From: an uncultured Planctomycetales bacterium
GTDB lineage: Bacteria; Omnitrophota; Gorgyraeia; Gygaellales; Profunditerraquicolaceae
Assembly: GCA_964542785.1 (NCBI GenBank)
Contig: CAZIUK010000001.1
Span: 506,862 to 570,861 of the forward strand
Direction of reading: 5' to 3'
DNA: 64,000 bases
Shown: piece after piece, positions 10,944 to 36,303 of the stretch
Layout: each line of letters opens with the position of its first letter
Numbering within the stretch: the first letter of the stretch is position 1
Made by a program: the position numbers and the translations under genes
The notes under the pieces: generated by a model
Told to the model about the DNA's origin: nothing
Database searches by the model: none
Seen by the model: the letters and a program-made list of their open reading frames with translations, nothing else

Positions 10944-10987
10944 ATTATCTTGACTTTTTATTTGCTTTAGGTTAATAATAAAAGACT

Positions 10988-12295
10988 ATGTCTGCAACAA
11001 CAATGGATAAGATAGTTTCACTCTGCAAGCGCCGTGGTTTTATATTCCAATCTTCGGATATTTATGGAGGCTTAAGCAACACCTGGGATTATGGGCCGCA
11101 TGGAGCAGAACTAAAGAGAAACCTTAAAAACGCCTGGTGGAGCGCTAACGTACATAATCGTGATGATATGTATGGAATGGACTCAGCCATCCTTATGCAC
11201 CCAAAGGTCTGGGAGGCTTCCGGCCATGTAAAAAACTTCTTCGATTTAAAAAGCGACTGCTTATCCTGCCGTAAGCGCTTTAAAACCGAAGACTTAAAAG
11301 ACAAAAGTAAATGCCCTCAGTGCCAGGGAGAACTTACTGAAAGCAGGCCATTTAATCTTATGTTTAAAACCCATCAGGGCCCTTTAGAAGATGCTGAAAA
11401 CTTAATATATCTAAGGCCTGAAACGGCGCAAGGAATATTTGTCAACTTTGCTAATATCCTTGACTCACGCCACCCAAAGCTTCCCTTTGGCTTAGCGCAA
11501 ATAGGAAAATCTTTTAGGAACGAGATTACCCCGGGAAATTTTACTTTCCGCACGCGCGAGTTTGAACAGATGGAAATTGAATACTTTGTCCGGCCGCAAG
11601 ATGCAGACGAATATTATCAAGAGTGGGTTAACCTAAGGAAAGAATGGTATATTGCTTTAGGGATGACAAAAGAAAATTTACGCCTACGCCAACACAATAA
11701 AGAAGAGCTCGCCCACTACGCCTTAGCCTGCACAGATATAGAGTATAACTTTCCCTTTGGCTGGTCAGAATTAGAAGGAATTGCCAATAGAAGCGACTTT
11801 GACTTAAAAGAGCACTCAAAATACAGCAAGAAAGATTTAAGGTACTTTGACGATGCTGTAAAGGAAAGGTTCTATCCTTTTATCATTGAGCCTTCAGGAG
11901 GCATTGACAGGGCAGTTTTGGCATTTTTAGTTGACGCCTATACAGAAGAGAAAGTAAAGGATGAAACACGAGTAGTATTAAAATTAAGCAGAGAGCTTGC
12001 ACCAATAAAAGTAGCAGTATTTCCTCTTTTAAGGAATAGACAAAAGATAGTGACTTTAGCTAAAAATATCGCCTTTGATTTAAAAAAAGTTACCGTAGCC
12101 GTATATGATGACACAGGAGCGATAGGAAAACTTTACCGCAGGCAGGATGAAATCGGCACGCTTTATTGTATTACGGTGGATATCCAGTCCCTTGAGGATA
12201 ATCAAGTAACAGTCCGTAACCGTGATACTATGCAGCAAGAGCGGATTGGTATTGACAGATTAAAAGAGTATATTACTAATAAGTTGCAGAGTTAG
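10988..12295 (+). CDS. glyQS: glycyl-tRNA synthetase, dimeric alpha2 type
   Basis: 435 aa with the class II GlyRS N-terminus (IVSLCKRRGFIFQSSDIYGGLSNTWDYGP) and a C-terminal anticodon-binding domain. Confidence 0.9.
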   Translation: MSATTMDKIVSLCKRRGFIFQSSDIYGGLSNTWDYGPHGAELKRNLKNAWWSANVHNRDDMYGMDSAILMHPKVWEASGHVKNFFDLKSDCLSCRKRFKTEDLKDKSKCPQCQGELTESRPFNLMFKTHQGPLEDAENLIYLRPETAQGIFVNFANILDSRHPKLPFGLAQIGKSFRNEITPGNFTFRTREFEQMEIEYFVRPQDADEYYQEWVNLRKEWYIALGMTKENLRLRQHNKEELAHYALACTDIEYNFPFGWSELEGIANRSDFDLKEHSKYSKKDLRYFDDAVKERFYPFIIEPSGGIDRAVLAFLVDAYTEEKVKDETRVVLKLSRELAPIKVAVFPLLRNRQKIVTLAKNIAFDLKKVTVAVYDDTGAIGKLYRRQDEIGTLYCITVDIQSLEDNQVTVRNRDTMQQERIGIDRLKEYITNKLQS

Positions 12296-17984: not shown

Positions 17985-19307
17985 ATGGGAAGACGCTTGA
18001 TTGTAGTCTTAGCACTCGCCTTAGCAGTTGCTATTACGCTTAGCCCTGCTTTTGCCGAAGTGCAAAACGTCAAAGTAAGCGGAGACCTAAATATGTTCGG
18101 GGCTATCCGCAACAACTTTGGTTTGACTCGCGGCCCGGATGGTAACAGACGCAATAATGACGAAAGTTTTATTGCTACGCAGACTCGCGTAAAGATTGAC
18201 GCAGACTTAACAGATAATGTATCTGCGGTAGTCAGGTTAATTAACGAAAGAAAATGGAATAGCAATGAAGAGACTAAGATTGACTTGGATTTAGCATATG
18301 TAGGTTTAAAAGAATTCCTATACTCTCCGTTATCTCTTACCATAGGTCGTCAAGAACTAATTTATGGCAACAAACTCATTCTTGGCAAGAGTAGTGTAGG
18401 CTCTAGTGCTAGCGGCATACCAACAGACTTAAGCTTAAAAAAGTCCTTTGATGCTATAAAGGCAGTTCTTAACTATGACCCGTTGGTAGTTGATTTAATT
18501 TATGCTAAGATTAGCGAAGATAGTAGTAGAAGCGTAAAAGATGATGCTAACCTATACGGCATCTATGCATCCTATGATGTAAATAGGAAACTTAAAGCAG
18601 ACGTTTATGGGTTTTACAAAAAGGATAGGAATAAGGCTTCAGCTATATTCAAAAATGATACAGTCTTAACTGTCGGTTCCTTAATAACTGCTACGCCAAT
18701 AGATAACTTAAAGACATCCTTAGAAGCAGCTATGCAGTTTGGGAAACGCGCTATAGGCAAAACAACTACAAGAGACAGCAGAACAAAGGCATGGGCTTTG
18801 CAAGCAGCAGCTGAATATACCTTAAGTAACGTAAAGTTTACTCCTACAATCGGAGCATCCTTTACCCACCTAAGTGGCGACAAAGATGGAGAAAATGGAA
18901 AGAGGGCTTGGGATTCAATGTTCCAGGATCAAGCACTTAATAACATCACTAATGCTATAATTCCTTTTACAAACTTAAATGTCCTTAACCTAAAAGGAAG
19001 CATGAAGCCAACTGATGATGTTACCTTGTGCGCTAACTGGGGTTTTTATATTAGAGATAGAAAGAGCCCAGGCAGCATGATTAGTCCAGCAACTGATTCC
19101 AATGGTTCTTCTTCTTCATATGGCAATTACAATATGACCAGTAAGAAATACTTAGGCAATGCCTTGGACCTTACTGCTACTTATGATTACACTGAAGATG
19201 TTCAATTTGGTTTAACTACCGGATGGTTTATGCCTGGAAATGCATTCGAAAAAGATAACCGCCGCATAGCATCTCAGGTAATCGGTTCAATGAAAGTAAC
19301 ATTCTAA
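17985..19307 (+). CDS. outer-membrane beta-barrel protein (porin-like)
   Basis: Cleavable signal peptide (AFA-EV), alternating amphipathic beta-rich sequence and an aromatic C-terminal residue (…MKVTF); good RBS AAAGGAGGG. Confidence 0.5.
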   Translation: MGRRLIVVLALALAVAITLSPAFAEVQNVKVSGDLNMFGAIRNNFGLTRGPDGNRRNNDESFIATQTRVKIDADLTDNVSAVVRLINERKWNSNEETKIDLDLAYVGLKEFLYSPLSLTIGRQELIYGNKLILGKSSVGSSASGIPTDLSLKKSFDAIKAVLNYDPLVVDLIYAKISEDSSRSVKDDANLYGIYASYDVNRKLKADVYGFYKKDRNKASAIFKNDTVLTVGSLITATPIDNLKTSLEAAMQFGKRAIGKTTTRDSRTKAWALQAAAEYTLSNVKFTPTIGASFTHLSGDKDGENGKRAWDSMFQDQALNNITNAIIPFTNLNVLNLKGSMKPTDDVTLCANWGFYIRDRKSPGSMISPATDSNGSSSSYGNYNMTSKKYLGNALDLTATYDYTEDVQFGLTTGWFMPGNAFEKDNRRIASQVIGSMKVTF

Positions 19308-28081: not shown

Positions 28082-29167
28082 ATGCGCATAATTTCTATTA
28101 CTAATCAAAAAGGCGGTTGCGGAAAGACAACCACGGCTGTTAACTTGGCAGCTTCACTATCTATAAACAATAAAAAAACTTTATTAATAGACCTCGATCC
28201 TCAGTCTCACGCAACCTTAGGTTTAAATATAAAATCATCCTTAAGTATTTATAACGTCCTTTCTAAAGTTTCACACCAAAAAGCAAAAATAGAAACTATT
28301 ATTCAAAACATAAGTCCTGACTTTGATATCGCCCCAAGCAACATAGTCCTAAGCACCTTAGAACAGGAGTTAGCCGGTGAGATAGGCAGGGAGTCGCGTT
28401 TAAACGAGGTATTAAAGGCTTTTAAGAATAATTACGATTATATTATTATTGACTGCCCTCCAAACTTAGGTATTTTAACCATAAATGCTATCCGTGCTTC
28501 TTCAGAGGTTATCATACCGGTTGAGGCAAGCAGGTTTTCTTTAGAAGGCTTAACTCAGCTTATCAGCATAATTGATTTAGTCCGCGACCGCTTAAGCCAC
28601 AGGGTAGATTTTAGAGTCTTAGTTACCAACTTCGACTCCCGTCTTGCGCATTCTTTTAAAATGCTTAAAAAAATCAAGGAGGACTTTAAAGAAAAGTTGT
28701 TTAGCAATATAATCCATGTTAATGTTAAGCTAAAAGAAGCGCAGAATCAAGGAAAGCACATTTTAAACTTTGATAAATACTGCCGCGGAGCAAAGGATTA
28801 TTTTAGCTTAGCAAGAGAGATAATTACTCAAGAAAAAATACCCACCCCAGCTTTAATCTTAGAAAAAAGAATGAAAGAGATTCTAAAAGAGCAACTACCG
28901 GGCTTAACAGAAATTGCCTTTTCGGTATTTGCCCCTGAAGCCCGTGATGTTTATCTGGTAGGCGAATTCAATAACTGGCAGATAAATGATTCCTCCCGAA
29001 TGACCCAAAATAACGGGACTTGGAGCAAAAAATTAAATCTAAATACCGGAAGATACCGTTATCGCTTTGTGGTAGATGGCAGCTGGATGGAAGATACCAA
29101 AAACCCAAATAAAGAGAACAATCCTTACGGATCTGTTGATTCCCTGCTTGAAGTTAAAACAAAATAA
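28082..29167 (+). CDS. ParA/MinD-family ATPase fused to a C-terminal AMPK-beta-type glycogen-binding domain (CBM48)
   Basis: Deviant Walker A NQKGGCGKTTTAVNLA and a ParA-like core of about 250 aa; the C-terminal 90 aa (VYLVGEFNNW...YRYRFVVDGSWMED...SLLEVK) matches the AMPK beta glycogen-binding domain motif VYLSGSFNNW...YKFFVDGQW. Confidence 0.8.
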   Translation: MRIISITNQKGGCGKTTTAVNLAASLSINNKKTLLIDLDPQSHATLGLNIKSSLSIYNVLSKVSHQKAKIETIIQNISPDFDIAPSNIVLSTLEQELAGEIGRESRLNEVLKAFKNNYDYIIIDCPPNLGILTINAIRASSEVIIPVEASRFSLEGLTQLISIIDLVRDRLSHRVDFRVLVTNFDSRLAHSFKMLKKIKEDFKEKLFSNIIHVNVKLKEAQNQGKHILNFDKYCRGAKDYFSLAREIITQEKIPTPALILEKRMKEILKEQLPGLTEIAFSVFAPEARDVYLVGEFNNWQINDSSRMTQNNGTWSKKLNLNTGRYRYRFVVDGSWMEDTKNPNKENNPYGSVDSLLEVKTK

Positions 29168-29668: not shown

Positions 29669-29791
29669 GATAAACAGCCTATCCTTTAAAAACTATTTAG
29701 GGGAAAGGCTCAAAAAATAAGGGATTTTTGAGTAGATACTCAAAATAAATAGGGCGTTAAAAATAAGTAAGTTTAGGTAAATTATACTAGC

Positions 29792-30106
29792 ATGCAGCCA
29801 AGAGGAAGGCCAAAGAAGTATAGGATAGTCCGGTTGGACCCTAAAATAGCCAGATTTAGCCCAAGGGGCAAGCCCGGTAGGCCTGATGAGATAGACTTAC
29901 CTATGGATCAATTCGAAGCAATAAGGTTATCTGATTATATGGAACTGCCGCAAAAAAAGGCTGCTGAATCAATGAGAATATCCCAACAAACCTTTAGTCG
30001 GATACTAAATAAAGCAAGAAGAGCCCTTGCACATGCCTTAATTAATGGAAATACCATAAAAATTCAAGGCGGACACTACGTAATAACCTCAAAAGAAACC
30101 CCCTGA
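29792..30106 (+). CDS. DUF134/UPF0251-family predicted DNA-binding protein
   Basis: N-terminal RGRPKKYRIV motif (the DUF134 signature) and a C-terminal sigma-70 region-4-like HTH (ESMRISQQTFSRILNKAR). Confidence 0.65.
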   Translation: MQPRGRPKKYRIVRLDPKIARFSPRGKPGRPDEIDLPMDQFEAIRLSDYMELPQKKAAESMRISQQTFSRILNKARRALAHALINGNTIKIQGGHYVITSKETP

Positions 30107-30152
30107 AAACCTTAAAAATCAACTCTTTAGCCTGAACTTACCTTATAGCTTA

Positions 30153-30180
30153 ACTTCCTATAATATATCTTATGTTAACT
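30153..30180. other. dif-like XerC/XerD chromosome dimer resolution site
   Basis: ACTTCCTATAATATATCTTATGTTAACT matches B. subtilis dif (ACTTCCTAGAATATATATTATGTAAACT, recalled from memory) at 25 of 28 positions; it lies in the convergent AT-rich gap where the gene strand switches. Confidence 0.6.
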
Positions 30181-30347
30181 ATTATATATTGGATAAATAT
30201 CAGTAATCATTTGCAGGACATAGAGTTAAAGAAGTATATTATTATCCTGTGGATAAGCAGAATTTTATTTACTTAAACTTACTTCTATTATTTAAAGTTA
30301 ACAGATTATAAGAGATTAATGAATAGTCTTACCGGGATTTTTAGCCC

Positions 30348-31022
30348 TTAATCTCTTAGGGGGGGTTTAACCATAATATCAGTAGTTAAACTAGCACCGC
30401 TTGCTATGCCGAAGATAGTAGTTCGAGCAAAGACCTTAACTAAAATTGTGCCTAAAACTGTATTAATATTTGTAATATCAGCATATTTTTCATAAAGATT
30501 GACATTAAATTCCTTAACTAGAGGGGCGCCTTTCTTTGTGTAATCCTTGTATATTAATCTACCTATTCTAAGCTCTAAATTATCTATTTGGATATCTAAG
30601 GTTTTTGCCTTAAGCTTGTCCTTCTTTCCTACCCCTTCTTTTTGCTCTTTATAAGAGTTTAAATAATCAAGGTTAGTCTTCCCCTCCTTATTCTTGACTA
30701 CCTTAAGCTCCTTTAAATTAAGCTTTAACTCTTTAAAGTAAGCCCTCCTTTCAAAGATTGCCGGCAAGCTATAATCAATAAAAATATTGGGGATATCTAG
30801 CATAATCCTATCTTCAAATCCTTTTGGGTTATATAGTTTAAGCCCGGTTATATTTACCCTGCTTTTAAATACCCCCACATTAAAGCTATCCACACTTAAT
30901 TTAACTCCGGTGGCGAATCGTACACCATTTTCAAAGACAACCTTTAGAAAAATGTCCTTTAAAAATAAAACCCCTAAAATAATAATAAAAAGGAAGGTTA
31001 ATATTTTTTTAAACTTCTTCAT
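30348..31022 (-). CDS. hypothetical membrane-anchored protein
   Basis: 224 aa with an N-terminal TM helix; no recognisable motif. Confidence 0.4.
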   Translation of the reverse strand: MKKFKKILTFLFIIILGVLFLKDIFLKVVFENGVRFATGVKLSVDSFNVGVFKSRVNITGLKLYNPKGFEDRIMLDIPNIFIDYSLPAIFERRAYFKELKLNLKELKVVKNKEGKTNLDYLNSYKEQKEGVGKKDKLKAKTLDIQIDNLELRIGRLIYKDYTKKGAPLVKEFNVNLYEKYADITNINTVLGTILVKVFARTTIFGIASGASLTTDIMVKPPLRD

Positions 31023-35002: not shown

Positions 35003-35827
35003 ATGTATTGTAAGTTTTACAACTTAAAAGAACGCCCCTTTAATGTTACATCTGACCCGGCATTTTTTTTCTTCAGCAATAAGCATAAAGAGGCCTTGGC
35101 CCACCTACATTACGGAGTCTCAGAGAGAAAAGGGATTATAGTTTTAACCGGAGAGATAGGCACCGGTAAAACCACCCTCTGTAGGTTCTTCTTAGGCGAG
35201 CTTGAGAAAAATGTAAAAACTGCTTTTATATTAAATCCCCGCTTCTCTGAAGCACAACTCCTAGAATCTATAGTAACTGACTTTGGGATCCCCGCCTTAG
35301 GAAAGAATAAATTAGGAATGGTCTCCCAGCTAAACGAATTTCTTCTACGGGAATCATCTTTAAAGAATAATGTCGTATTAATTATAGACGAAGCGCAAAA
35401 CTTAAAACCCGGACTCTTAGAGCAGATACGTCTTCTCTCTAATATTGAGACAGAAAAAGAAAAACTCCTTCAAGTAATACTCGTAGGCCAACCTGAACTT
35501 AATGCACGGCTAAACCTCTATGAGTTAAGGCAACTAAGACAAAGGATTATGGTTAGATACCATATCCTCCCCCTTGAACACAGAGAAATAGCAGATTATA
35601 TTAAGCATAGGCTTAATATCGCCGGTTTAGCCGAAGGGATAGAGTTTACTATTGAGGCTATAGAAAGAATTAGCAGCTTTTCTTCAGGAACCCCACGATT
35701 AATAAATATGATTTGCGATAGAGCCTTACTAGCAGGGTTTACCGCAGGGTCCAAAAGCATAGATCGGGATATAATCAACAGGTGTCTTGAAGAACTGGAT
35801 AGTTATGCGATAGGAGGTAAAATTTGA
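35003..35827 (+). CDS. ExeA/GspA-family AAA ATPase
   Basis: FYNLKERPFNVTSDPAFFFFSNKHKEALAHLHYGV...GIIVLTGEIGTGKTTL is the ExeA N-terminal signature plus Walker A; a TTGACA-16-TATAAT promoter lies at about 34962-34989. Confidence 0.8.
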   Translation: MYCKFYNLKERPFNVTSDPAFFFFSNKHKEALAHLHYGVSERKGIIVLTGEIGTGKTTLCRFFLGELEKNVKTAFILNPRFSEAQLLESIVTDFGIPALGKNKLGMVSQLNEFLLRESSLKNNVVLIIDEAQNLKPGLLEQIRLLSNIETEKEKLLQVILVGQPELNARLNLYELRQLRQRIMVRYHILPLEHREIADYIKHRLNIAGLAEGIEFTIEAIERISSFSSGTPRLINMICDRALLAGFTAGSKSIDRDIINRCLEELDSYAIGGKI

Positions 35828-36303
35828 GTATAATTTATGATGCCTTAAAAAAATTAGAAAAAAATATAAGTCATCCCAATAACCAACAGGATAACCCTAA
35901 ACTTACAAAAAAACCTGAAATCAAAAAACCAAACCCCTTACTTGTATTTACCCTCATTCTTTTATCGTTAGTATTTATAACAAAAACTATTATACAAATA
36001 GTTAAGAATTCTAAAACAGCACAACTTTCTACAACCCCTAAATCCATAGCAATAGAGCCAACTGCAGAAATTACTCCTCAAGATAAAATAGAAGAATCCC
36101 CTCTTATAAAAGAACCCCCAGAACCTGAATTAACATTAAATGGGATATATTTCCAAGGCAGTGAAAGCTATGCCTTAATCAATAACAAGGTAGTTAAACC
36201 CGGTGATACCATACAGAATGCAAAGGTAAAAGAGATAAACTTAGAGAAAGTATCTTTAGACTTTGAGGGAAAAGTAATTACCCTGCTTAATTCTTCGCAT
36301 TAA
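35824..36303 (+). CDS. GspB/ExeB-like membrane-anchored partner of ExeA
   Basis: N-terminus (M)SIIYDALKKLEK resembles the GspB N-terminal motif MSYILDALKK; one TM helix; TTG start overlaps the ExeA stop. Confidence 0.5.
   Translation: MSIIYDALKKLEKNISHPNNQQDNPKLTKKPEIKKPNPLLVFTLILLSLVFITKTIIQIVKNSKTAQLSTTPKSIAIEPTAEITPQDKIEESPLIKEPPEPELTLNGIYFQGSESYALINNKVVKPGDTIQNAKVKEINLEKVSLDFEGKVITLLNSSH

Follow-up and report, generated by a model that had tools for sequence, protein, structure and literature searches.

To our knowledge, chromosomal dif sites are near-universal. The described systems closest to the locus presented here are the dif site of Bacillus subtilis, which works with CodV (XerC) and RipX (XerD), and that of Escherichia coli, which works with XerC, XerD and FtsK. 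A further likeness is found in cer/psi, xerS-difSL and the XafT system of TLC-phi, where an Xer core likewise lies beside conserved DNA and a gene for a small DNA-binding protein. In cer, the accessory DNA stands on the XerC side of the core, and difSL is 31 bp long. We know of no conserved flanking cassette described for Bacillus. The experimentally confirmed dif of B. subtilis has been printed as ACTTCCTAGAATATATATTATGTAAACT and the dif of E. coli, in the same list, as GGTGCGCATAATGTATATTATGTTAAAT (Kono et al., 2011; PMC3025954). Dif sequences of the Firmicutes type were reported to be widely conserved across phyla, the Omnitrophota lying outside that survey and the prediction failing for the Planctomycetes (Kono et al., 2011; PMC3025954). 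No paper linking a dif site with the Omnitrophota was found in the literature searched.

The site analyzed here is a 28-mer, ACTTCCTATAATATATCTTATGTTAACT, on the + strand of a 64-kb window, by which we mean the whole stretch of DNA that was analyzed; the coordinates of the site and of its surroundings are collected in Table 1. The 28-mer is very probably the chromosomal dif of a Candidatus Omnitrophota bacterium, placed where the two replication arms meet. Its format is that of an XerC/XerD dif, with two 11-bp arms, an imperfect dyad and a 6-bp centre; the dyad symmetry amounts to 9 of 14 pairs, equal to that of the B. subtilis dif, and the 28-bp 11-6-11 layout is likewise shared. An earlier note on this DNA had put the likeness to the B. 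subtilis dif, including both arms, at 25 of 28 positions. The reference string that it used agrees with the published one (PMC3025954), and recomputation returns the same total, with three differences from ACTTCCTAGAATATATATTATGTAAACT and identities of 10/11 in the left arm, 5/6 in the centre and 10/11 in the right arm. The centre is TATATC in place of the TATATA of Bacillus, and the phylum differs as well: the implicitly Bacillus-like framing of that note was wrong, the host being a member of Candidatus Omnitrophota, in the PVC group. Identity to the E. coli dif is lower (20/28 in total) and unevenly spread, the left arm agreeing at only 6/11 and the centre at 4/6, whereas the XerD-side arm TTATGTTAACT matches TTATGTTAAAT at 10/11. 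Likeness to validated dif sites is thus found in both references, at 10/11 in each for the XerD arm, the part that matters above all. A comparison with dif sites predicted for relatives, which had been proposed as a check, gave 21 to 23 of 28 identical positions to Verrucomicrobia and others (Acholeplasma 23/28, Methylacidiphilum 22/28, Akkermansia 21/28), all with the common core ACTTC...ATAATATAT.TTATGT (Kono et al., 2011; PMC3025954). This near-sameness with Bacillus and Verrucomicrobia sites agrees with the earlier reports of Firmicutes-type dif sequences across phyla.

Table 1. Features of the candidate dif locus and its immediate surroundings (positions in the 64-kb window).
Feature	Position	Strand	Remark
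Palindrome TGAGTAGATACTCA, candidate operator	29729..29742		in conserved DUF134 upstream region
GTAAG-N5-GTAAA repeat, left copy	29767..29781	+	10 nt upstream of DUF134 start codon
DUF134 (PF02001, UPF0251) small helix-turn-helix protein	29792..30106	+	last gene of left arm
Intergenic gap, 241 nt, between convergent genes	30107..30347		lowest GC of the window's sizeable gaps
Candidate dif core site, 11-6-11	30153..30180	+	identical in at least 119 Omnitrophota loci
Left (XerC-type) arm ACTTCCTATAA	30153..30163	+
Central region TATATC	30164..30169	+
Right (XerD-type) arm TTATGTTAACT	30170..30180	+
Perfect DnaA-box consensus TTATCCACA (TGTGGATAA on +)	30248..30256	-	67 nt right of site
GTAAG-N5-GTAAA repeat, right copy of inverted pair (TTTACTTAAACTTAC on +)	30268..30282	-
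Perfect 11-nt inverted repeat TAAGAGATTAA / TTAATCTCTTA, spanning stop codon of right-hand gene	30309..30358		T5 run at 30338-30342
DUF748-like membrane protein	30348..31022	-	last gene of right arm in this genome

The 28-mer is the sole match in the 64-kb window at three or fewer mismatches, and none of 100 dinucleotide-preserving shuffles of the sequence gives such a match. An exact-match scan covering one genome per species returned at least 119 loci from at least 118 assemblies, nearly all of them labelled Candidatus Omnitrophota or Omnitrophica and a minority Planctomycetales or PVC. The 28/28 identity across these loci is partly by construction, because the scan took exact 28-mers only and variant sites in the phylum lay outside its reach. 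A chromosomal dif, like that of E. coli, is expected once per chromosome. The 28-mer is single-copy as far as can be checked, with one occurrence in the window and exactly one in each of the 119 loci listed; the earlier note had made uniqueness a condition of its reading. Two of these loci (L006 and L087) are contigs of one public metagenome-assembled genome (CAYXSY01); their dif regions are orthologous and 86% identical, and this assembly is therefore a mixed bin of two related populations rather than a genome with a duplicated site. The surroundings of the 28-mer have diverged far more than the site itself. The nearest locus among those listed (L011) is 89% identical to the window at the DNA level, the median pairwise identity of the flanking proteins is 67% for DUF134 and 60% for DinB, and the bases directly outside the 28-mer are variable across loci. 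Twenty-eight non-coding bases that are fully identical amid diverged neighbours therefore point to strong constraint, and the conservation is independent of the flanking genes, since 21 loci of the exact-match scan carry the site among unrelated neighbours. A dif site is in itself an ordinary and expected feature; what is unusual is only the exact identity across at least 118 species, together with the cassette described below.

The gap that holds the site has a GC content of 26.1%, against 37.5% for the window, and it is free of gene calls on independent contigs carrying the same locus as well. It had been called the only sizeable AT-rich gap of the window; it is indeed the most AT-rich, but six other gaps measure 275–542 nt. 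Gene orientation switches here, as had also been claimed: among ORFs of at least 100 aa that fit a non-overlapping gene map, those on the left all lie on the + strand and those on the right on the - strand, except that two + ORFs (35003-36303) break the - block. The convergence spans the whole 64 kb of the window. The genes flanking the site are chromosomal housekeeping genes, namely those for the His-, Asp- and other tRNA synthetases, PhoH, YbeY, RecO, a sigma-70 factor, pyruvate phosphate dikinase, ThiC, phosphofructokinase, biotin carboxylase and a ParA-type ATPase, and the site therefore belongs neither to a plasmid nor to a prophage. No gene for an integrase and none of phage or plasmid type turned up among the scanned ORFs of the window, and neither tRNA genes nor other integration targets were found near the site. 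The same arrangement recurs among the relatives. In 80 of 92 related loci, the genes next to the site point toward it from both sides, the right-hand gene never being on the + strand; 88% of the coding sequence to the left lies on + and 96% of that to the right on -. The 21 loci without the customary neighbours keep the pattern. A conserved position of the site, where two co-oriented arms of the chromosome meet, is thus supported.

The genes that end the right arm vary. In the window, DUF748-like, HisKA-like and radical-SAM genes stand to the right of the site and a lexA-dinB operon is absent, while in about half of the related loci the right arm ends in a - strand operon of the SOS type, made up of lexA, an ORF of about 100 aa of unknown function and dinB (a Y-family polymerase), which ends about 184 nt after dif (e.g., L008, L043, L044, L108). 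The perfect inverted repeat at the far end of the gap probably acts as a transcription terminator for the converging genes. In 41 related loci, a run of T begins at a distance of exactly 157 nt after the site, and in many of these it is preceded by a hairpin whose stems differ in sequence while the pairing is kept (CTGGTA/TACCAG, CAGGT/ACCTG); this combination looks like an intrinsic terminator of the + strand.

Strand composition turns at the same place. On crossing the site from left to right, the purine skew goes from +0.082 to -0.082; its cumulative maximum is at 30,098, and the cumulative A-T maximum falls at 30,122 in the window. The mean G-C skew of the window is about 0 over the left arm and -0.19 over the right, and the change-point of the detrended G-C curve lies at 30,528 (block-permutation p <= 5e-4). 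A change of sign in GC skew had been expected at the site, and this expectation was borne out in part: besides the change-point, 60 of the 63 related loci that extend 1.5 kb or more to either side show a drop in GC skew from left to right (a comparison independent of the strand read), but the raw cumulative maximum stands at 18,912: with G-C skew nearly absent from the left arm, the peak is displaced leftward by 11 kb. The turning points of gene orientation and of purine and A-T skew, like the G-C change-point, all lie within 30.1-30.5 kb, so that the switch of polarity as such, which the earlier note had placed here, stands. No switch of keto skew was seen at the site in the window; since the asymmetry is of the purine, or coding-strand, type, the compositional signal is not independent of gene orientation. 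The purine excess is made up differently on the two sides, the leading/coding strand being A-rich without G-C skew in the left arm, but G-rich with only slight A-T skew in the right. We infer that the polarity switch is the replication terminus, so that this site resembles the E. coli dif, too, in standing at a switch of the terminus type, and the B. subtilis dif in lying where strongly co-oriented replichores join. An origin of replication was considered for the locus and rejected, as there is a single conserved DnaA-box-like motif, the genes converge and the skew changes in the direction of a terminus.

If the site works as dif does in E. coli and B. subtilis, each 11-bp arm would be bound by a tyrosine recombinase, one of the XerC and one of the XerD type. 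Where sister chromosomes had become joined as a dimer, two copies of dif would be paired at the division septum, probably by FtsK, and paired strand exchanges across the 6-bp centre TATATC would then restore monomers. Both the identity of the recombinases and the dependence on FtsK, a part of the E. coli system, are suggested by the format of the site and the similarity of its arms. The KOPS-type polarity of GGGNAGGG ran 66:8 toward the site in the pooled loci, but all permutations of the motif were equally skewed (87% pooled), so that the test is uninformative and, in contrast to E. coli, a KOPS-specific polarity is not discriminated. The scan of window ORFs brought up no tyrosine recombinase, and a tblastn search of the window and 119 loci, in which an E. 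coli XerD sequence served as no more than a probe, gave no Xer match.

This lack of xer genes in the window and the 119 loci would also suit a genuine Xer site of another kind, either one served by a single recombinase in place of an XerC/XerD pair or one at which the switch is only local and not a terminus. We consider both unlikely. For a single recombinase, the two arms would hardly be expected to differ as they do, at five of the 14 dyad pairs, each resembling its own counterpart in the dif sites of two-recombinase systems, and the 28-bp 11-6-11 format is unlike the 31-bp difSL. A merely local switch could draw on the coding-strand character of the compositional change and on the displaced raw G-C maximum; dif and the shift-point of the skew may also lie apart, as the two need not coincide exactly (Kono et al., 2011; PMC3025954). 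Against it stands the convergence over all 64 kb of the window, joined by the flanks of the related loci, read in 8-kb blocks, in which skew and orientation were followed for up to about 7 kb.

The site does not stand alone in its gap. Of 107 related loci, 73 have a DUF134 gene next to the site on the left, its stop codon mostly 32-114 nt before the site, and the DUF134 homologues, among the best 120 of 730, are all at least 67% identical, those with a source name being from the Omnitrophota. To the right of the site, on the side of the XerD-type arm and at a fixed distance, a conserved non-coding module of 130-150 nt is present in 82 of 112 loci (30181-30312 in the window). One of its two strongest blocks is TGTGNAWAA, the reverse complement of the DnaA-box consensus TTWTNCACA; 80 of 113 loci have it at 65-69 nt right of the site, where chance would give 0.001 per locus. 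The other is the right copy of the GTAA repeat; TTTACTTAAACTTAC is found 100-119 nt after the start of the site in 63 loci. In many loci, the left copy is found 0-30 nt ahead of the DUF134 start, with the inverted copy in the module. In the window, both copies are contained in a 23-nt inverted repeat of 87% complementarity (29760-29782 / 30267-30289), which brackets DUF134 and dif, and the looser pattern GTAAR-N5-GTAAA is present six times against 1.0 expected. The spacing of 10 nt between GTAA half-sites would be compatible with a protein that binds one face of the DNA. Upstream of DUF134, the palindrome TGAGTAGATACTCA is followed by a -10-like AATAAA motif and then by GGGCGTTAAAA; a palindrome of the form tGAGTA-N2-4-TACTCA recurs in most of the DUF134 upstream regions displayed. 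This region looks like the operator and promoter of a small, autoregulated helix-turn-helix protein. The upstream/leader stretch as a whole (29702-29791), with the palindrome, the -10-like ATAATAAA and GGGCGTTAAAA, is strongly conserved across species. The full order is thus palindromic operator, GTAA-N6-GTAA, DUF134 gene, dif, DnaA box and inverted GTAA-N6-GTAA, and DUF134 and the module tend to occur together (odds ratio 18, without correction for phylogeny).

Several other explanations of the conserved neighbourhood were tried and rejected. As to a structured RNA, the gap and module had no Rfam match better than E = 7, and RNAalifold on 80 sequences predicted the dif palindrome only, with no covariation. 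A pairing of the 5' and 3' UTRs through the GTAA repeats was considered on the strength of a complementarity of 14.6 of 23 positions within loci against 14.0 between loci (permutation p = 0.002), an excess so marginal, and so devoid of clear compensatory changes, that relatedness among the loci can explain it. A short inverted repeat bracketing the 28-mer can pair in only about 50% of loci, and its positions -4/+4 show both C-G and G-C.

The 23-nt inverted repeat around DUF134 and dif could also be taken for the boundary of a mobile unit, the 28-mer then being the attachment site or end of a mobile element, such as an IMEX-type phage or a unit bounded by inverted repeats, and not a dimer-resolution site of the host. 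Two related viral contigs, 28 and 32 kb in length, lend this some colour. In them the exact 28-mer lies close to a contig end, at distances of 27 and 107 nt, with a terminator-like hairpin before it (IMGVR_UViG_3300044580_000221, L120, at 28-55; IMGVR_UViG_3300028622_000016, L121, at 10979-11006), and only weak phage-protein matches are found nearby. These contigs may represent Xer-exploiting phages of the IMEX type or proviruses bounded by dif. Elements of the IMEX type use the dif site of their host, however, so that viral copies argue for the host site as a real Xer target, and if the contigs do use the host Xer system, that status of the 28-mer would be favoured. The window ORFs scanned include no integrase or phage genes, and, as far as the loci show, the site occurs once per assembly and at the orientation switch. 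Nor was a second bounding site found, as no other match at three or fewer mismatches exists in the window; a degenerate dif-like sequence at 30277-30304, considered as an IMEX remnant, agrees at 15 of 22 arm positions, a level reached 469 times in 946,000 positions, which is no better than chance. A match to the module core in a further viral contig (L122) was set aside, since the region looks, by eye, unrelated to the module and apparently coding. An origin of the site in a mobile element is accordingly very improbable.

There is equally little to recommend a reading of the 28-mer as chiefly a transcriptional element of the DUF134 locus (a promoter or operator, or part of a terminator) with an incidental likeness to dif: a perfect TATAAT inside the site (30159-30164), preceded at 16-17 nt by a conserved TTTACC-like motif, the frequency of DUF134 as left neighbour and the module that follows the site would all suit it, but the identical 28-mer stands between converging genes in the 21 loci with neither DUF134 nor the module, none of its 28 positions varies, even in the half that is unlike any promoter, both arms match dif sites validated in two other phyla, and no + strand gene lies downstream for a promoter to serve.

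With the 28-mer read as the chromosomal dif, the locus provides a candidate dimer-resolution site, hence a likely replichore junction, for a large uncultivated phylum outside the dif surveys, and the exact 28-mer can be used to anchor scaffolds of metagenome-assembled genomes, to orient replichores and to flag phages that exploit Xer. The neighbourhood of DUF134, DnaA box and GTAA repeats may further point to accessory factors at a chromosomal dif and to what DUF134 does. It differs from the systems that it recalls: the module lies on the XerD-type side and not, as in cer, on the XerC side; the centre, set against cer/psi, xerS-difSL and XafT, measures 6 bp; and the neighbouring gene codes for a DUF134 helix-turn-helix protein, not for a recombinase, PepA/ArgR or a DUF3653 protein. 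One could imagine that dif forms part of a conserved nucleoprotein cassette in which DUF134, and possibly DnaA, would bind on both sides and modulate Xer recombination or couple the terminus to replication control, a proposal that we hold to be unlikely. The survival of the 28-mer in loci without DUF134 or the module indicates that retention of the site does not depend on the cassette, and the DUF134/DnaA-box/GTAA-repeat arrangement is best regarded as an unexplained lead rather than a finding. Were that proposal right, it would give the uncharacterized DUF134 family its first functional context, with a modulation akin to that by the accessory factors of cer/psi or by XafT in TLC-phi.

A last observation concerns the left arm. 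Two genes upstream of the site (28082-29167), an ATPase of the ParA/MinD type carries a fused glycogen-binding module (AMPK1_CBM / CBM48) at its C terminus, which is an unusual combination of domains.
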